Virus record (IMG/VR): IMGVR_UViG_3300032270_000224 | Coordinates: 1 to 35,114 of that record | Direction: 5' to 3' (one strand) | From: a virus | Taxonomy: Duplodnaviria; Caudoviricetes | Length of the DNA: 35,114 nt | Notes under the pieces: model-generated | What the model saw: the letters and a program-made list of their open reading frames with translations, nothing else | Databases searched by the model: none | Told to the model about the DNA's origin: nothing | Made by a program: the position numbers and the translations under genes | Part shown: in pieces, positions 5,096 to 16,926 of the stretch | Layout of the letters: each line of letters opens with the position of its first letter | How positions within the stretch are numbered: the stretch's first letter is position 1

Positions 5096-5554
5096 TTAGG
5101 CGTTGGCTGCCTGAATGTAGCGGATGACGAGAGTGCCTGTACCGGCGGTAGCACTCAACGCGCCGGACAGAACGTAGATGATGTCATCCGTAGTCCCGGT
5201 ATTGAGCCAAGCACCAGTGCGGGTAGCATCTGTGCCGGGACTAAGCGAAAGTTTGCCAATAGCATTGGCATTCGTCGCCGCAACCAGTTCAGTGGCCGTG
5301 GCGGAAGTGCCGACGCTGATGGTGTATGTCGTCGTCGCGCTCGTCCAAGCAGCCGTAACGAACAGGTCAATCGAGGTGATCAAGCTGTTGGCGGGGATTA
5401 CAATGGTCGTCGCCGCAGCGGTAGCCGACTGCGTAACGGTAGCAAACTGCGCCATCTCGACGAAGCCGACATTCTTGACCGTACCGGCAGTGGTGCCGGT
5501 CGTGTTCAGAACGTCGCCAGCCTTGATGGGGCCGGTGAATGTAGTAGTACCCAT
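5096..5554 (-). CDS. Putative capsid decoration / minor head protein
   Basis: Start ATG 5554 after AGGAGG. MGTTTFTGPIKAG N-terminus, Thr/Ala-rich beta protein; first structural gene after the MCP/endonuclease. Confidence 0.65.
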   Translation of the reverse strand: MGTTTFTGPIKAGDVLNTTGTTAGTVKNVGFVEMAQFATVTQSATAAATTIVIPANSLITSIDLFVTAAWTSATTTYTISVGTSATATELVAATNANAIGKLSLSPGTDATRTGAWLNTGTTDDIIYVLSGALSATAGTGTLVIRYIQAANA

Positions 5555-5563
5555 GGGGTCCTC

Positions 5564-5630
5564 CTGCACGATGAGATCACGAAGTCTGTGCAGCGTCCGC
5601 TAGGCCGGTCTGCGTGATCGGGTTGCCTAG
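5564..5630 (-). ncRNA. Candidate structured RNA with three interlocked stems (double pseudoknot)
   Basis: Perfect complementary pairs CUAGGC/GCCUAG, GAUCACG/CGUGAUC and CUGCAC/GUGCAG in the order a-b-a'-c-b'-c', with GAC in three linkers; abuts the RBS of 5096..5554. Confidence 0.65.
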
Positions 5631-6290
5631 ATGGTAGTCCAGATATTGAGCGGCTAACCGGAGAACTTTTGGGTCATCCTTCAACTTCCCAATTCCTGTA
5701 TTGCAATCAGAACACAAAAGCCCTCGAATTGCACCACTTTTGTGGTCATGATCGACGGCCAATGCTCTGAGCCTTCCCTTCCGTAGTTGCGTTTCTGGCT
5801 GTTCGCAGATAGCGCATTTACCTTGTTGGGCATCAAGCATTTTATTGTATTCAGTAAGAGAAAGATCAAAGCTTCGGCGCAAGGCGCGGGCCTTTTGCTG
5901 AACTGGCGTTAAGATCCTATAAGCCTTGTGATAGGCCAACCGGCCTTTCTTTGTCTTATGGTCATATTCACCAGCAAGGCCGTTGAAGAGAGTTAGATTT
6001 TCAAAACGGCAATCACTTTTATCGCCGTTCTTGTATCTGACTCGCCGCTCCGGCCATTCCCCAGTCATATAAAACCAAGCCAGCCTTGACTCCGTGACTT
6101 CTTCGCCACTGATGCGAATGTAGCGATAACCACCGCCAACACTTTTTCCACCAGCAACAACTCCCGCCTTCAGATTCTTGGCCGGACTGATCTTCCACAC
6201 AAACACTCCGGTAGCAGGATTGTAGTCCAATGCGGCCCGAACTTGATCGTGAGTTAGATTAGGAATTCTAGCTTTACCCTTCATTTTCAT
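5577..6290 (-). CDS. Free-standing homing-type endonuclease: degenerate HNH-like N-terminal region plus recombination endonuclease VII domain
   Basis: LDYNPATGVFVW...RLAWFYMTGEWP...KNGDKSDCRFENL (HNH_3-like; the usual His/Asn residues appear replaced). QQGKCAIC...LAVDHDHKSGAIRGLLCSDCNTGIG is the EndoVII signature. AT-richer than its flanks. Confidence 0.85.
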   Translation of the reverse strand: MKMKGKARIPNLTHDQVRAALDYNPATGVFVWKISPAKNLKAGVVAGGKSVGGGYRYIRISGEEVTESRLAWFYMTGEWPERRVRYKNGDKSDCRFENLTLFNGLAGEYDHKTKKGRLAYHKAYRILTPVQQKARALRRSFDLSLTEYNKMLDAQQGKCAICEQPETQLRKGRLRALAVDHDHKSGAIRGLLCSDCNTGIGKLKDDPKVLRLAAQYLDYHLGNPITQTGLADAAQTS

Positions 6291-6339
6291 CTCCCGGTGT
6301 TAGCTTTAGAAGCTTATACCGGGAGATGACTTTTTGCAA
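6287..6339 (-). promoter_or_regulatory. Sigma70-type promoter embedded in an RBS-sequestering hairpin of the endonuclease gene
   Basis: -35 TTGCAA (6339-6334), 17 nt, -10 TAAGCT (6316-6311). A 12-bp inverted repeat TCATCTCCCGGT/ACCGGGAGATGA covers the GGGAG RBS and the ATG. Confidence 0.7.
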
Positions 6340-6378
6340 GCTATACGATTCAATTTTAGAAAATACCCCGGAAATCCC

Positions 6379-7284
6379 TTAGGTTGGGAAGGCTCCAAAG
6401 ATACTCCTAAAATTATAATAGCCGAAACTGTAGCGCTCGTAACCTTTGACAAGCAAATTGTCTGTAGTGAAGTCAACTTGCATGTCTGTTTCAAACTTAA
6501 TGCGCTCCATATAGGAGAGCCCATCAATGTTCGTAAGCAGGAACCACGCGCGGGCAGAGGTCAGGTAGTCATTGACCATGTAGCCCTCGGGGAGGCCGCC
6601 TGCCGTGGACATGATCGCGTTCACGTCATTGTCCGCAGTGCCGGGGCGCAGTTCGGTCTTCGTCAGGCGGATCGCCACCGGCTCAAGAGCGGGCGGGATA
6701 ACCAGACGACGACCGCGAGCAAACACCTTCAGACCGGCCTGATCACGGAAGTTGGTCCTGATGGCGATCATGCCAGCAAGCAGCGTACTCTCGTTCAGGT
6801 CGTTGGTGGTGTAGTTCGAGATCGTGCCACCGTCGATGGGGTGGTCAGACGCCACGAGGGCCTTGCCGTCGCCGCCAATGGACCCATTGTAGGTCGTCGC
6901 GGTGTTCAGCACGTTGGCGCCGTAGATTTCCTTGGTCTGCGCAAAGGACTGCGTCAGGCCGAGGTTCGACGGGGCAAACTGGCTCTTGTAGAGGTTGTCG
7001 TCAATGGCCTTGCGAGTGATCGCGTAGCCGAGGCCGATCTCGGTGTGCTCCTGATTGTACACGAAGCGTTCGCCAGCGCCGTTGTCGAACGCGGTCTGGC
7101 CGCCCTCGGTCTTGAGCTGGGCGTAGCCAAGGAAGCGCATCTCAGCGGTGCGCTCCAGAGCCATCTTCGAGTCGTGCTTGGTGAAGATCTTGTCGTACTG
7201 CGACGGGATCTGCTCGTACTGACCTTCAACGCCCCGGAGGCCGGGGAGGAGAAGATCTTTAATCGCTGAAAGATTGACAGCCAT
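6379..7284 (-). CDS. Major capsid protein (Mu gpT-like family)
   Basis: LLLPGL, EIGLGYAITRKAIDDNLY, GGDGKAL...DHP, LVIPPALE, WFLLT and ERYSFG match this MCP family; strong GC3 codon bias; AAGGAG RBS. Confidence 0.85.
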   Translation of the reverse strand: MAVNLSAIKDLLLPGLRGVEGQYEQIPSQYDKIFTKHDSKMALERTAEMRFLGYAQLKTEGGQTAFDNGAGERFVYNQEHTEIGLGYAITRKAIDDNLYKSQFAPSNLGLTQSFAQTKEIYGANVLNTATTYNGSIGGDGKALVASDHPIDGGTISNYTTNDLNESTLLAGMIAIRTNFRDQAGLKVFARGRRLVIPPALEPVAIRLTKTELRPGTADNDVNAIMSTAGGLPEGYMVNDYLTSARAWFLLTNIDGLSYMERIKFETDMQVDFTTDNLLVKGYERYSFGYYNFRSIFGAFPT

Positions 7285-9500: not shown

Positions 9501-9911
9501 TCAATAGACTTCATCGGGATGGGGAACGCGACCTTGAAAGCTCGCGTCGTCAAACATGCGGCACAAGACGCCGTGGACGGTGAGGTTCCACCCGTCACTG
9601 GGGCGAAAGACCAGCCAATCGCCGACATTAATGTCGAGGCCGTCAAACCACTTGCCGTCGCTTTCGACAAAGGCGCTCGGACCCTTTCGAACTACCAACC
9701 CAACTTTGGACTGATAGCGGTCTTCGTCGCGGGTCTTGTCGGTGAGGTAGAAGCCGCCCTTGGTCTTCTCGGGGCGGATGTATACCGCAACAAGCACGCG
9801 AGTATTAAACACCTCAAATTTGCTGAGATCGCCGAGTTCGGCGAGCAGCTTCTCCTTCGGATCAACTTCGTGGCTCATGGCGATGTTGTGGTGTGCAGAT
9901 ACGTTGGACAT
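9501..9911 (-). CDS. GroES/Cpn10-like co-chaperonin
   Basis: RVLV...EKTKGGFYL (mobile loop)...GLVVRKGP...INVGDWLVF matches the Cpn10 pattern. Confidence 0.85.
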   Translation of the reverse strand: MSNVSAHHNIAMSHEVDPKEKLLAELGDLSKFEVFNTRVLVAVYIRPEKTKGGFYLTDKTRDEDRYQSKVGLVVRKGPSAFVESDGKWFDGLDINVGDWLVFRPSDGWNLTVHGVLCRMFDDASFQGRVPHPDEVY

Positions 9912-11877: not shown

Positions 11878-14800
11878 TCAAGCTTGCCGGGATACTAACA
11901 TAAGGGCGCGATCCACGACAGAGGCGCTTGTTTTCCCGCCTTTGGAGAACTTGGGGGCCAATTTTATGTCAGGGTTTGCTTGTGCTTGCTCACTGAACCA
12001 TTTTTGAATTGCTTCTACATTTGGCTTTTCAAAATCCCGCGAAGCTACAATGTCACCAGTAGTTGGGTGAGATAGCTCAACAAGCATCGGTTCGCCGCGA
12101 TATTTAGTATTGTGCGATGAAACAATGGTTTTAATTTGTTTATCTGTTGGGATTGTTGCAACCTCAAACCCAATGCCGGGTTTGTTTCTAATTGCACTTG
12201 CATCAGCCATGAACTTGGTCATGGCTTCATGACCTTCCATGCCTTCAGGACCCGTCATCATGTGAACGACATCGCGGTGGTCTACAGCACGATCATTGGC
12301 AAGATAATCCTGCTTCCCTTGCGGGGCGTAAAACTTATCACCAACACGATTGTACCCAGCTTGACTCCGTCCTGAAAAATCCAGCATCTTGCCATTTGGC
12401 AAAACATAACCAGCCTCTGCGATGTTATGCGTAGTGCCGTAAGTCTGTATGGCCTTGTTAGCCAACTCTTGCGCAGCCCCTATTGATTTGGAACTTCCCC
12501 CAATAGGCGGGTTTAGGATGTGCTCGACATCAGGAACATCTTGCGTTTCCCAAGGATGTGTTGCTTTCAGCTCTTCAGGCGTCATGTTCATGCGGCGTGG
12601 AACATTTCTTGCTTCCACTTCACCCGCCGTGTTGTGGTACAGTTTGCTCCGCGCAGGCTCGAACCATTGCACCTTCTCCCGCATTGGAAGATCATTCCAC
12701 GGGATGCTTTTGTCGGGTTCTGTGTATCCAAAATCTTTCAACAATTGAACGAGATCAGGATCAGTTTCAGGTACAGCGGGCCTCTCATAAAGTTTTTTAG
12801 CCATAGGCTCAACTTGAGAACGTTTCCAACCAAAATCTGGGTTGGAGCCGGGGGTAAAACCTTCTAATTCTTGAATATAATGTTGAAGCTCGTGCAAAAT
12901 TGTCTGGCTTTTGTTTGGTCCAGACAAGTCAATTCTTCCATTTCCATAGCTTCCTTCAGAAGGACCAGACAAAGATCTTTCTTCACGAAGCTTTATGTCA
13001 GATGCGTTTGGATATGCCTTGTAGAGGTCGTCATGAACAAACTGACGACCAACAGTATTTGGTCCTTGAGCCATAAGTTCGGCATGCGAACTGACGGGAG
13101 GAAGGGCGCGATAGAATGATTTTTGATCGGGTATTTCAAATCTCCAATGACCATCAGATCCTTGGAACCAACCTGTTTTCCCAATTATTTCGCTGCGGTC
13201 GGCTCCTGCTTTTGCCATTCTTTCTGCAATCGCAAGTTTGCCAAGATCAGCGGTTTTTGCCAACCGTCCAGCAAAAAGAGCCTGCGCCTCCCCCGGCTCC
13301 ATCCCTGCGGCGCCCATGAGCGCGCCCGCGCCGTACTTGGCGACCTTACCGGGGACACCAAGCAGCGACATCGCCATGCCGGGCAGGCTCTTGTCCATCG
13401 CGCTTTCGGTGAAGTCGGAGGCGGCGGCAGGGAGGGCCGTAATGGGGTTCATGTAGAGCGGCAGCGTCTTGGCGCCGTAGGCGGTGTTCGCCAGCGTAGA
13501 CATGCCGGGGGCAACGTCGAAGGGCGCGCGGCCAAGTTCCATGCCTTTGGCGTAGCCACTGTCGAGCGTGACGGGCAGCGTCGGCTTGGCCCCGAGGTGC
13601 GTCATTGATTGGATCTCGGGGCTTTGTTGGGCAACTTGCGCCGCCATTTCCTTGTAGGCCCTGACGCGGTCTGCATCGGTCTCGGCGGGCGGCTCAACTG
13701 CCTTTGGCCTGTTGTCGCGATAGATCGTCAGTGGGCGCGGCTCAAACGTGAAGAACGGCGCCTGCCCCACCGCCTCGCCATCAGCGTGATGCTCGCGCAC
13801 GACGCGCAGGGCGTCGTCAACAGGCGCTTCTGCCGCAGCGTCGTCAGGCATGGTCGCAGCACCAGCCGCACCGGCGCCAGTGCCCGCCAGCATGTTGCGG
13901 ATCGTGATCATGTCGTAAACGGGATGCTCATCGCCCGTCTTCTTGTTCACAATCGTTCCGACTTGCTCGCCCGGATAGACGTTACCCTGCGTCGTCGGCT
14001 TGAGGCGAGGCTCGCTAGTCTCTTTCGGGTATCGAGCGAGATCGACCCCCTTGGGATAGTCGGCACCCAGCGAGTAATAATGCTTGTTGCGGTTCTCGGT
14101 GCTGACGATCATCGGGACGTTTTCATAGCCCTCTGGGGCATTTTTCCAGTCCCAACCGGCGCTTCTCCTGAACAGGTTTGTCATAGTCTTGGTGCTGCCC
14201 TTGCCGGGCGATCCAGTCACGTCAACCTGTTCTGGGTCCGTCATAAATACCGGTTTGCCCTCTGGCGTAACGCCAAGGACAGCACGGGCGGGCTTCTGGC
14301 CGGTAACGGCCTCACCTGTGGCGGCATTGATGTATTCGCCGCCCGGAGGCCGGGCGTCCGCAGGGAACATACGCTGGGGCTTGGGGAACACCTTGTTGCC
14401 GCCACGAAGCGCCGCAAGCGCCTTGGCAACAACGTCGCCGCCGCCAGCATACCCCTCAACCTCGCCGCCCTCGGCGCGCTCAAGCTTGTGGAAGCGCGTC
14501 TCTCCAATGTCCACACCGCCGGTGCGGCCCCATGACGGAGCCTCGCGGCCAAGTGCAAACTGAGCCTTCGGCCCCCAGAAGTGCGTGGCCCCACCAGTAA
14601 TGTCTTCACCCGCCATCGCCGCCTCAAGGGCGTCCCGAGCGTCGGAATACCGCTGGCTCTTGGGCGAGATATTCATGGGGTAGTTCTTGCCCGCCGGGTT
14701 CATCCAAGGCTCAAACTGTCGCTTGGCGAACAGAACGGCCTCGGGGCTTGCGCCATACTTGCCCGAGTTGATCCGGTTGAGGATGACGCTGGCGATGGCC

Positions 14801-16926
14801 CGCGTCTCCTCCGGCGACTTGCCACTGGTCTCCGCCGCGATGGTGCGGATGACGTAGTCGGCCTGTTGCTTGGTCAGCGCCGTGCCGTGGGGCTCCTCGG
14901 GGATGCGGGCCGTCAGCTTGCCCGTCGCCTGATCAATCGCGTCAACGGCTGGCGCAGGGGCTGGCGTGGCAGTGTAAGCAAGAGGTCGAACCGCCGGGCG
15001 CTCCTCCCTCGGCATACCCTGATTGACCATGGGCGGACCTTCGGCGCGAATCAGGCGCAGGGCCGCATCAACTGGAATATTGTCGCGTTGGGCGAGGTTG
15101 TGAGCCTGAAGGATCTCGCCAGCCCTGTCCAACTCGGGGCCGGAGTAGACGCCAGCATTGTGCAGCTTCTCAACGGCGGCGAGGGCGTCTGCGGCGTTGG
15201 GGATCTCAGTCTGCGGGGCTACGTTTTGCGCCAGCGAGACGGCATTGTTGATGGCGGCCTGCGGGGTGGGGAGCGCGAACGCTGCGTCGGGGAGCGTATA
15301 TTTTTGCGGGCTGCTTGTTGGAACTTCCGGCTGTGCATCCGCCCAATTTGTCTTGCCATCAACCAAGACTTGCCCAAAGCCGGGGCTTTCCCGAAAATGT
15401 GGGAGCATCTGCGTCGTCACTTGCTGCCCAGACACGGCCTGCCCAAAGTCATAGGGGCCAATGGTCCGCTCAAGAACGGGTGGGAAATCGTGCGGCTCTA
15501 CCGTGTCGCCGGGGAGCGTCTCAATGCGGCGGATCGCAGGCGCCGGTGCTGGAGCGGGCGCAGCGATCTGCTGGCGCGGCGCAACCTCCGGCGCAGGGCG
15601 ACGAAGCGGCAGCGGCATATCGCGGGCAGGTTCAGACGCCTGAACCTCACGCGCCAAACGCAGGGCCTTGTCGGCCTTGAAGAAGTCAGACGCCACCTCG
15701 GGATCGCCCCAGTTCGTCGGAGACGCCACCTCGCCAGTGGACAGGTAGTCGGGGCCGGAGAACAGGTCGGACAGGAAGCCGCCGCCTGCCAAGTGGTGGC
15801 GGACGGCGTGGAGGGCGGCGTCAACTTCGCCGCCATCAGCGAAGTTGAATTTGGCTCCGCCACGAACGTGGGTCTCGCGGTCGCCGGTCCTGTGTCCGGC
15901 TCCGGCATAAAGCTGGCCCACCAATTCCTTGCGAGAAGGTTGGCGCTCCCGATCCCTGCGCGACGGCGGGACCATTGGTTGTTCCTCGCGGGAGGACGGG
16001 AGCCTGAATTGTGGGGCATCAGGGTTGCGCCCAGTCGTCAGGGGAAGCGAGTAGGACACGTCATAAGATGGCGCCCCGTGCGCACCGGAACGGCTGGCCG
16101 TGGCATTAATGCTTCCCTTGTCTAAGGCCTTGGAAAGTGAAATCGCGTTCTCCGCATCCCATGGGCTGCCAATTTCATTGCTGCGGCGGTAGGACGCGCT
16201 CAGGCCCTCGGGCAAGCGCGCGGTCATCATGGCGTTATAGCCGGGCGTTGAACCGTTCTGGCCGGACATATCGAGCATACCGCTCATTGGCCCAGCATTA
16301 GCCATGACGCCAAATTGGCCGACGCCCCCGGAAGGATCAAAATCCATCGGGTTCGACATACCGGGCTCCAGCGGACGCGGCATGTTAAAGAATAAAGGCA
16401 ACTGCTCTTGTGTTAGCTGGCCTGATTGAGGCCTAACATTCTCTGGTGTGTAGGCGGGTTGGCTAGGATACGCCTCACTGAGACGGGCCATGAGGGCTTC
16501 GTAGGCAGCGTCATCAGCTTTAGTGCGACCACCTTCAGCCATAGTCTCAGGCTGCACCATCTTTGGCGGCGCCAAAGCCAACTGCTGCGCATTTGGAGCG
16601 GAGTTGAACTGCGCAAGGTTGAAGTTGTTTGCTGGCATCATTGAGGCGGGCGGGGTGGCCGCAACGATAGGCGCAATCGCGGCCTCCGCAACAGGCCTTG
16701 CCGCAGCCAGATAAGGCTGCATGGGAGCGGCTGGAACAGAAGCATTTGACACAAGCTGCTTCATATAATTGTTGTAGGAACCGCTTGAAAACGGGTCTGG
16801 AAACATCTTTTGAACTATCTGCCCAGCAAGGCCAAGCTGGGGAAGGCGATAGTTCATGTCATAATATTCAGGCCTTGAGAAGTCGTCTGAATATGTGGCG
16901 CCGCTGTCATATGAGATTTTGGCCAT
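11878..16926 (-). CDS. Large multidomain (polyvalent/ejection-type) protein with SleB-like cell wall hydrolase and LPD23-like HExxH domain
   Basis: Hydrolase_2 pattern RTIAAE...IASVILNR...QFEPW...ITGGATHF...IGETRF (~14488-14865). TGWFQGSDGHWRFEI...LHELQHYIQELEGF...AGEVEARNV (~12540-13280; HELQH at 12880-12894). C-terminal AGYVLPNGKMLDFSG...DHRDV domain. Confidence 0.85.
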   Translation of the reverse strand: MAKISYDSGATYSDDFSRPEYYDMNYRLPQLGLAGQIVQKMFPDPFSSGSYNNYMKQLVSNASVPAAPMQPYLAAARPVAEAAIAPIVAATPPASMMPANNFNLAQFNSAPNAQQLALAPPKMVQPETMAEGGRTKADDAAYEALMARLSEAYPSQPAYTPENVRPQSGQLTQEQLPLFFNMPRPLEPGMSNPMDFDPSGGVGQFGVMANAGPMSGMLDMSGQNGSTPGYNAMMTARLPEGLSASYRRSNEIGSPWDAENAISLSKALDKGSINATASRSGAHGAPSYDVSYSLPLTTGRNPDAPQFRLPSSREEQPMVPPSRRDRERQPSRKELVGQLYAGAGHRTGDRETHVRGGAKFNFADGGEVDAALHAVRHHLAGGGFLSDLFSGPDYLSTGEVASPTNWGDPEVASDFFKADKALRLAREVQASEPARDMPLPLRRPAPEVAPRQQIAAPAPAPAPAIRRIETLPGDTVEPHDFPPVLERTIGPYDFGQAVSGQQVTTQMLPHFRESPGFGQVLVDGKTNWADAQPEVPTSSPQKYTLPDAAFALPTPQAAINNAVSLAQNVAPQTEIPNAADALAAVEKLHNAGVYSGPELDRAGEILQAHNLAQRDNIPVDAALRLIRAEGPPMVNQGMPREERPAVRPLAYTATPAPAPAVDAIDQATGKLTARIPEEPHGTALTKQQADYVIRTIAAETSGKSPEETRAIASVILNRINSGKYGASPEAVLFAKRQFEPWMNPAGKNYPMNISPKSQRYSDARDALEAAMAGEDITGGATHFWGPKAQFALGREAPSWGRTGGVDIGETRFHKLERAEGGEVEGYAGGGDVVAKALAALRGGNKVFPKPQRMFPADARPPGGEYINAATGEAVTGQKPARAVLGVTPEGKPVFMTDPEQVDVTGSPGKGSTKTMTNLFRRSAGWDWKNAPEGYENVPMIVSTENRNKHYYSLGADYPKGVDLARYPKETSEPRLKPTTQGNVYPGEQVGTIVNKKTGDEHPVYDMITIRNMLAGTGAGAAGAATMPDDAAAEAPVDDALRVVREHHADGEAVGQAPFFTFEPRPLTIYRDNRPKAVEPPAETDADRVRAYKEMAAQVAQQSPEIQSMTHLGAKPTLPVTLDSGYAKGMELGRAPFDVAPGMSTLANTAYGAKTLPLYMNPITALPAAASDFTESAMDKSLPGMAMSLLGVPGKVAKYGAGALMGAAGMEPGEAQALFAGRLAKTADLGKLAIAERMAKAGADRSEIIGKTGWFQGSDGHWRFEIPDQKSFYRALPPVSSHAELMAQGPNTVGRQFVHDDLYKAYPNASDIKLREERSLSGPSEGSYGNGRIDLSGPNKSQTILHELQHYIQELEGFTPGSNPDFGWKRSQVEPMAKKLYERPAVPETDPDLVQLLKDFGYTEPDKSIPWNDLPMREKVQWFEPARSKLYHNTAGEVEARNVPRRMNMTPEELKATHPWETQDVPDVEHILNPPIGGSSKSIGAAQELANKAIQTYGTTHNIAEAGYVLPNGKMLDFSGRSQAGYNRVGDKFYAPQGKQDYLANDRAVDHRDVVHMMTGPEGMEGHEAMTKFMADASAIRNKPGIGFEVATIPTDKQIKTIVSSHNTKYRGEPMLVELSHPTTGDIVASRDFEKPNVEAIQKWFSEQAQANPDIKLAPKFSKGGKTSASVVDRALMLVSRQA

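Follow-up and report, generated by a model that had tools for sequence, protein, structure and literature searches.

Genes and features at the locus

In the window, the 35,114-nucleotide stretch of a caudoviricete genome that was analysed as a whole (IMG/VR record IMGVR_UViG_3300032270_000224), a Mu gpT-like major capsid protein of the HTVC023P type is encoded on the minus strand at positions 6379..7284 (PF10124, 20.6 bits with a cut-off of 20.1). The protein is 42% identical to the capsid protein of HTVC023P. Further downstream on the same strand are a free-standing HNH/endonuclease VII gene of 237 codons (5577..6290, likely start at 6284; PF02945, E 4.9e-25; PF13392, E 4.6e-8), a 67-nt RNA element (5564..5630), the Shine-Dalgarno sequence (5564-5560), spacer and ATG (5554-5552) of the next gene (together 5552..5564), and that gene itself (5096..5554), whose 152-residue product is predicted from a structure model and structural comparison to be a homotrimeric capsid cement (decoration) protein. 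The element had initially been annotated as lying downstream of the capsid gene. This is the case in most relatives, where it comes after the capsid stop codon and a terminator-like hairpin, but not directly so in the window, where the endonuclease reading frame lies in between. The endonuclease gene occupies the site of the capsid terminator of the relatives and continues into the RNA element: the last 18 codons of the reading frame make up the first 54 nt of the element.

A hairpin is predicted over the ribosome-binding site of the endonuclease gene (6287..6329, minus strand; z -4.43 for 6280-6390), and in 15 of 20 endonuclease alleles the Shine-Dalgarno sequence is predicted to be paired. 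A section of PMC2988022 describes likewise structured Shine-Dalgarno sequences for T4 homing endonucleases. Neither a sigma-70 promoter nor a terminator was found on the minus strand of 5400-6500 and we therefore claim no promoter for the endonuclease. The window holds no second copy of the element; two other triple-GAC spacings lack the pairings described below.

Several other minus-strand genes of the window deserve mention. A GroES-like co-chaperonin gene (9501-9911) is situated inside the head module, and a glycosyltransferase gene adjoins a collagen-repeat fibre gene (682-1800 and 1793-2557) and may serve to glycosylate virion surface proteins. A protein of 1682 residues (11878-16926) with a lysozyme-like segment at residues 683-795 is likely an ejection protein.

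Predicted fold of the RNA element

Three perfect helices of 6 to 7 bp accompanied by three GACs, as the initial annotation had them, are present on the minus strand of the window: a (5630-5625) with a' (5605-5600) over 6 bp, b (5619-5613) with b' (5581-5575) over 7 perfect bp, extended to 9 bp in most relatives, and c (5593-5588) with c' (5569-5564) over 6 bp. They are the only perfect helices of at least 6 bp within the 67 nt, and three compatible helices were obtained in 1 of 5000 dinucleotide shuffles of the element. Nested folding by minimum energy gives nothing out of the ordinary (z 0.09 and 0.63) and misses the structure, as is expected because the fold is pseudoknotted.

The initial picture of three crossing stems is incomplete. 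The GACs, initially taken for linkers, pair with one another and close a three-way junction, and a fourth short helix is present. In the arrangement read from the sequences, every GAC is joined to both others, its G to the C of the GAC before it and its C to the G of the GAC after it, such that a single A is left over per strand. GAC1 (5608..5610) would accordingly pair through its G with the C of GAC3 and through its C with the G of GAC2, its A being unpaired; the C of GAC2 (5595..5597) would pair with the G of GAC3 (5584..5586), the third junction strand. The predicted junction consists of the closing helix P1, of arm 2 with 3 bp and a loop pairing to the 5' tail, and of arm 3 with 1 bp and a loop pairing to the 3' tail. 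P1 is a helix of 9 bp formed by b (5611..5619; 9 nt, 7 perfect pairs in the window) and b' (5575..5583), the latter containing the stop codon of the endonuclease reading frame (5579-5577). Arm 2 (5598..5607) is 10 nt long, with a 2-bp helix d (5607-5606 with 5599-5598) around the 6-nt loop a', which pairs with the 5' tail a (5625..5630) as pseudoknot 1. The loop c of arm 3 (5587..5594) pairs with the 3' tail c' (5564..5569) as pseudoknot 2. P1 ends 20 nt and c' 10 nt before the start codon of the cement gene at 5554, and the last G of c' is indeed the first G of the GGAGG Shine-Dalgarno sequence, an overlap that had been noticed from the outset.

Variants of the junction were collected with a loose parser, which accepted 67 of 348 shuffles and was for this reason used only for reading variants, while all census figures stem from a strict parser. 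The junction pairs covary: among loci chosen regardless of RNA, cases read by eye gave a change of the G1-C3 pair to A-U in seven loci of four subtypes and of C2-G3 to U-A in L454 and L477; the latter change is also found in L064. Swaps to U-A and A-U at the junction were likewise read by eye in DSL-LC04 and 023Pt. For the C1-G2 pair, no change was seen among the loci compared.

Conservation and covariation in related phages

Two protein-led scans of IMG/VR yielded 159 loci, some of which are the same contig. The start of the downstream gene was located in 140 of them and the motif was present in 136 of these 140; one of the four misses, L064, has a variant element. A short gap after the capsid stop codon is found in 113 of the 136 motif loci and a long gap in 22, and in one there is no capsid gene in view. 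A scan with the core pattern, covering an estimated 560 or so stored stretches, added 120 loci. After removal of two matches with short flanks, nine without the context of a ribosome-binding site and L231, 132 of 144 distinct matches were aligned.

In this alignment, 95.8% of the cells are paired and changes on both sides occur in 17 of 24 pairs. The covariation score is 0.423, compared with 0.160 after shuffling, a control that ignores relatedness, and with at most 0.098 when the partners are slid. All three helices of the initial annotation covary. Both-side changes affect 4 of 5 pairs in a/a', 8 of 8 variable pairs in b/b' and 3 of 6 pairs in c/c'. For c/c', 99.4% of the cells are paired, and other subtypes have different c/c' sequences. 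The fourth helix flanks a' with two bases per side, and its first pair is C-G in 118, A-U in 10 and U-A in 4 of the 132 sequences. Invariance of the junction in this alignment is by construction, as the junction letters, like part of c, were prescribed by the search pattern. Helix b contains 65 G-U pairs versus 14 A-C mismatches, an excess that points to an RNA on the sense strand. In support of the initial annotation, the element is a conserved, covarying RNA structure across more than 100 related aquatic phage sequences.

Endonuclease genes replace the terminator and spare the RNA

An endonuclease gene takes the place of the terminator hairpin in 20 distinct alleles, which fall into five groups at 60% identity (the window, L002, L005, L041, L082, L091, L105 and others). 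The stop codon of the endonuclease lies inside the RNA element in 13 of the 20 alleles and at most 2 nt before it in five more. This close association, together with the overlap of the element with the last endonuclease codons in the window, could be taken to mean that the element is a feature of the DNA or part of a homing-endonuclease cassette, be it a target, an intron remnant or a recoding signal. We consider this very improbable: the 113 short-gap loci have the element without an endonuclease, which largely refutes such a reading, and a related endonuclease resides behind the capsid gene in a lineage devoid of the element (L060, L071), so that endonuclease and element are independent. The ratio of G-U to A-C in helix b also argues against a function at the DNA level. 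Moreover, in all 22 long-gap loci where the cement gene was located, the element still lies beside that gene. The locus thereby offers a natural experiment: homing endonucleases of at least five groups have taken the place of the capsid terminator, and the RNA stayed with the cement gene.

A number of side observations concern the endonucleases. In Caulobacter phage GB2A (L532, 2843-4393), a distant relative in culture, a gene annotated as a homing endonuclease likewise follows the capsid gene directly, and there is no GAC element. In 19 endonuclease alleles, the third-position G+C content of the last capsid codons (6379-6530 in the window) is 0.60, compared to 0.71 for the rest of the gene, and no such drop occurs in 84 alleles lacking an endonuclease (p 2e-4, uncorrected for relatedness). 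The last 100 nt of the capsid gene are 87% identical to those of near-identical phages, versus 98-100% in the first 600 nt, and have a lower G+C content. Judged from these sequences, the recoded capsid end is likely a co-converted target immune to cleavage.

Relation to the Mu-gpT-DE motif

A scan of the window against Rfam at gathering and E-value thresholds gave no family match at the element, and none of the Rfam 15 covariance models for known riboswitches and self-cleaving ribozymes matched it. The initial annotation had raised the possibility of identity with Mu-gpT-DE (RF03012), a motif downstream of Mu gpT-like genes that Rfam lists with 53 positions under the type Gene; sRNA. Even at E 10, no RF03012 match covered the element, which stays below the gathering threshold of 49 bits, and this form was matched by RF03012 in 0 of 50 related records and in none of 20 broad-family loci. 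Among 12 loci tested, RF03012 recognized CRP-901 and CRP-902 only. The best RF03012 scores in the related records were matches to Shine-Dalgarno sequences and start codons elsewhere and were rejected. As a positive control, a pattern built from the partial RF03012 consensus found true members, 19 of 20 of which scored above the cut-off.

Both forms are related nonetheless. Mu-gpT-DE shares with the window element three GACs spaced as in a three-way junction (the middle GAC in 59 of 59), a site behind a Mu gpT-like capsid gene and an arm-3 loop pairing with the translation start, and the same start of the downstream gene follows 107 of 110 pattern-found elements and 58 of 60 Mu-gpT-DE elements. 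The two forms also differ. Mu-gpT-DE has a closing helix of 3-4 bp that takes up the Shine-Dalgarno sequence, a long arm-2 hairpin and no 5' pseudoknot, whereas the window form has a 9-bp closing helix ending before the Shine-Dalgarno sequence, an arm 2 of 3 bp with its loop paired to the 5' tail, and hence a 5' pseudoknot. Arm 3 rests on the start codon in Mu-gpT-DE and on the bases just before the Shine-Dalgarno sequence in the window form. In Mu-gpT-DE the arm-3 loop covaries with codon 2 (GCC with Ala in 34, ACCC with Gly in 21, and 4 unassigned; n=59). As the element appears to work like Mu-gpT-DE and fails RF03012 membership by score, we regard it as a separate, uncatalogued and more elaborate sister form. 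The suspected kinship was therefore correct as regards the three GACs, the site and the downstream gene family, but does not extend to membership in RF03012.

The prevalence of both forms was assessed with 121 gene starts picked by the codons for the protein N-terminus from an estimated 22,000 or so stretches; four had short flanks, which left 117 loci. The strict parser detected the triple-GAC junction in 102 of the 117, L432 being a likely false case, versus 34 of 2320 shuffles. Upon curation by hand, about 85 of the 117 loci have the double-pseudoknot form, 23 are Mu-gpT-DE-like, seven have none and two are of other kinds; the catalogued Mu-gpT-DE form is thus the minority. On a capsid tree the two forms interleave, with 5 changes against 12.2 after shuffling (FastTree, 79 sequences, without clade test; the tree gives no age order of the forms). 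A capsid gene is situated upstream in 103 of 108 pattern-found loci. Among cultured phages, HTVC023P, HTVC027P and DSL-LC04 have the double-pseudoknot form, CRP-901 and CRP-902 have the RF03012 form, and GB2A and QDWS535 have neither. An orphan Rfam motif thereby gains a candidate structural core, the GAC three-way junction, and a larger family.

Hybrids between the forms were also encountered. A long P1 and a 5' pseudoknot are combined with an arm 3 on the start codon in L449, L455, L468, L484 and L505, and with an arm 3 on the Shine-Dalgarno sequence in L437, L438, L458 and L509. In L420, L422, L461 and L417 the leader is reduced to two or three GACs, with hardly any closing helix or none at all; these are possibly minimal or decayed forms.

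The 224-motif paper is reportedly the source of Mu-gpT-DE. The name is absent from its main text, and its supplement may already hold the double-pseudoknot form. The same applies to part of the supplement of the 10,006-candidate paper, of which the portion covered has no mention of Mu-gpT-DE (PMC10690425). The Rfam structure line of RF03012 draws neither the third arm of the junction nor a pseudoknot. In the literature searched, the CaCoFold paper is the one work that mentions Mu-gpT-DE; a label 'pk_1' stands beside it in a section of the supplement (PMC7657543), and a pseudoknot may therefore already be drawn for this form. The literature searched contained no test of Mu-gpT-DE function, no description of the double-pseudoknot GAC-junction fold and none of a cement-gene operator.

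The sRNA type in Rfam, the compact and knotted architecture with its invariant core, and the fact that the loop-tail pairs could form between molecules would all fit an independent non-coding RNA, i.e. a self-cleaving ribozyme, a small RNA or a packaging RNA assembled into a ring by loop-tail pairings. We judge this improbable. Rfam models, those of ribozymes included, gave no match, the element is not followed by a terminator, and for an active site it has few conserved letters; nothing was found to support the catalytic role that had initially been listed among the options. Furthermore, on its 3' side the element pairs with the Shine-Dalgarno region or the start codon, with covariation that involves codon 2, which speaks against a separate molecule.

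Position of the element in the transcript

In the broad family, 46 of 82 loci have a -10-like hexamer 4-10 nt before helix a, so that the RNA often makes up the whole 5' leader of the cement message. The clade of the window differs: a -10-like hexamer is present in 0 of 73 distinct short alleles, and a hairpin of -15 kcal/mol or stronger is located just before a in 73 of 73, with a U-tail by a set criterion in 49. In this clade, which has a terminator-like hairpin instead of its own promoter, the leader would arise by read-through from the capsid gene. A promoterless clade in which endonucleases repeatedly replace the terminator yet spare the RNA is new here. The RNA runs provided assembled contigs, in small shares. 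One of them, from a freshwater RNA library (X3), spans the capsid end, a terminator hairpin and the element of an endonuclease-free relative and reaches into its cement gene, and X4 holds pieces of the element; ends, strand and a single transcript cannot be read from such contigs, DNA may be present, and they were not counted.

Flaviviral xrRNAs are built on a three-way junction with two pseudoknots, one of which holds the 5' end. The window element resembles them in this topology, with one of its two pseudoknots at the 5' end, but lies in a bacterial 5' leader as opposed to a viral 3' region and has no Rfam match. In many loci, transcription likely starts only a few bases from helix a, and in the window clade helix a directly follows the terminator hairpin (73 of 73). 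Pseudoknot 1 might bury the first bases of the cement message and stop 5'-dependent decay or a 5'-3' exonuclease, with the effect that the cement part outlives the capsid part as with the xrRNAs. This explanation is unlikely. The 5' pseudoknot is optional in the GAC family: it is missing from the Mu-gpT-DE form and from some long-P1 forms (L198, L248, L253), while pairing with the translation start is kept in all forms. The nuclease-blocking function proposed initially is therefore possible as an add-on residing in the 5' pseudoknot, but not as the common core of the family.

The downstream gene encodes a predicted cement protein

The 152-residue protein has no name in Pfam and PHROGs, a tblastn search against GenBank phages returned no match, and a homologue search gave close relatives only, all of which are named hypothetical. 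In pairwise comparison, it is 38% identical to the annotated cement protein of DSL-LC04. The structure model (pLDDT 85.6) shows a beta-sandwich and an N-terminal arm. The best structural matches, with E values from 1e-4 to 2e-2, are capsid chains of Pam1 (E 1.1e-4), GP4 (9.5e-4) and KHP30/40, and a baseplate chain of R4C appears at ranks 3-4. The Ig-like cements of Pam1, GP4 and KHP30/40 have the same fold (TM 0.49-0.57) and are encoded by genes adjoining the capsid gene, but their identity to the window protein is just 12-20%. The initial proposal of a decoration-protein gene at this site is thus supported by the predicted fold.

Prediction with three copies gave a score of 0.97, compared with 0.00 for the best of three controls (pLDDT 96; runs agree in at least 99% of contacts), and places residues 1-16 in the trimer interface. 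In calibration, 20 of 30 solved homodimers and 1 of 23 single chains attained the mark applied to this score, and the result obtained here may stem from likeness to solved cement trimers. The cements of GP4, Pam1 and KHP30 are trimers at three-fold sites, with a cement to capsid ratio of 540:540 in GP4, according to a section of PMC9698820 in which no RNA binding by GP4-type cements is reported. The gene downstream of the element is predicted to encode a trimeric capsid cement protein whose N-terminal arm contributes to the interface.

The element tracks the start of this gene: the same N-terminal motif is encoded after 107 of 110 and 58 of 60 RNA-selected elements. This shared family start, M-x-x-T-T-F-S/T-G-P, is also present in the window. 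The motif is composed mostly of Thr, Phe, Gly and Pro, and position 11 is often Lys or Arg and also Thr, which makes for a weak RNA-binding signature.

Proposed control of cement protein synthesis

The GAC junction and the pairing of an arm at the translation start are common to all subtypes, from which we infer that the element likely controls, and keeps down, translation of the cement gene in cis. In 67 of 102 elements the partner of arm 3 ends at positions -18 to -1, and in 33 it overlies the start codon (counts without a control). In the subtype of the window a single Shine-Dalgarno base is paired, and a block would therefore rest on the ribosome footprint. Such control is dispensable, given that the element is absent from ten distinct close loci, five of which (L034, L047, L061, L067 and L131) have a cement-like gene of 150-161 residues directly after the capsid terminator.

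As the full mechanism we propose, with a probability of roughly 0.45, autorepression by spare cement trimer acting through the element. The element would be a structured leader that in its locked state blocks ribosome loading. With just 3 and 1 closing pairs, arms 2 and 3 suggest a fold that is marginal alone and needs a ligand, and the lock would most likely be provided by spare trimers of the cement protein, in which the N-terminal arm is the conserved portion. The N-terminal face of a C3-symmetric trimer, otherwise bound to the three-fold sites of the capsid, would recognize the three GAC arms. The match between a trimer and three GACs is an argument from shape only, and the core of A triples could be purely structural. 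As long as free capsid sites soak up the trimer, translation would continue, and once they are filled the cement protein would shut down its own synthesis, leaving it at about 1:1 with the capsid protein. A protein needed 1:1 with capsid sites is a classic case for autorepression, and control of the cement-to-capsid stoichiometry is plausible on these grounds. In the window, ribosomes that complete the endonuclease would terminate within P1 and might open it for a short time.

Related arrangements exist in other phages. T4 gp32 represses its own translation via a leader pseudoknot once it is in excess over its ligand, as stated in a section of PMC3014915, and the scaffolding protein of P22 is autoregulated according to part of bioRxiv 2022.12.13.520362. 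In both cases, as with the window element, the leader is structured where translation of the gene begins, and, as proposed here, the product is needed in a fixed ratio to a titrating partner. The folds of the T4 and P22 operators differ from that of the window element, however, and for the latter, binding of the cement protein to RNA is a proposal. The literature searched held no report of a cement protein as an autogenous translational repressor.

More tentatively, and with doubts that outweigh our confidence, the three-fold pseudo-symmetric RNA might mimic the capsid three-fold site, and the trimer might use the same N-terminal face on both. One of the most abundant groups of sea and lake phages would then count free capsid sites by means of an RNA decoy, and the output arm would have been rewired to pre-Shine-Dalgarno bases, the Shine-Dalgarno sequence or the start codon with the core kept.

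All pairing and position evidence would fit equally well if the same fold affected initiation as a constitutive dampener or responded to another ligand, for which capsid or scaffold protein, a host factor, or a metal ion or small molecule at the junction adenines are candidates. The bodies of the downstream proteins are not homologous across the family, and the junction pairs tolerate swaps from G-C to A-U, suggesting that shape is read more than sequence. We regard this alternative as possible, on the unlikely side: a constitutive block could do without a conserved three-fold core, it is hard to see why a capsid cement gene should have a metabolite sensor, and the N-terminal motif stays with the RNA.

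The orphan Rfam motif also gains a named downstream gene, for a predicted capsid cement, and a direct test, which is feasible since some of the HTVC023P-type phages that have the family are in culture. Should the trimer be the ligand, virion stoichiometry would be set by a protein-RNA switch of matched symmetry, and the element would offer RNA design a compact, naturally occurring scaffold with three arms.

A side observation concerns the proteins encoded behind the RNA, which share only about 12 N-terminal residues. Their bodies measure 67-248 residues and are not alignable, differing bodies being found for example in L296, L322, L359, L321, L295, L229, L243, L200 and L221. As a side reading of these sequences, the genes may encode a modular capsid anchor with swappable heads.
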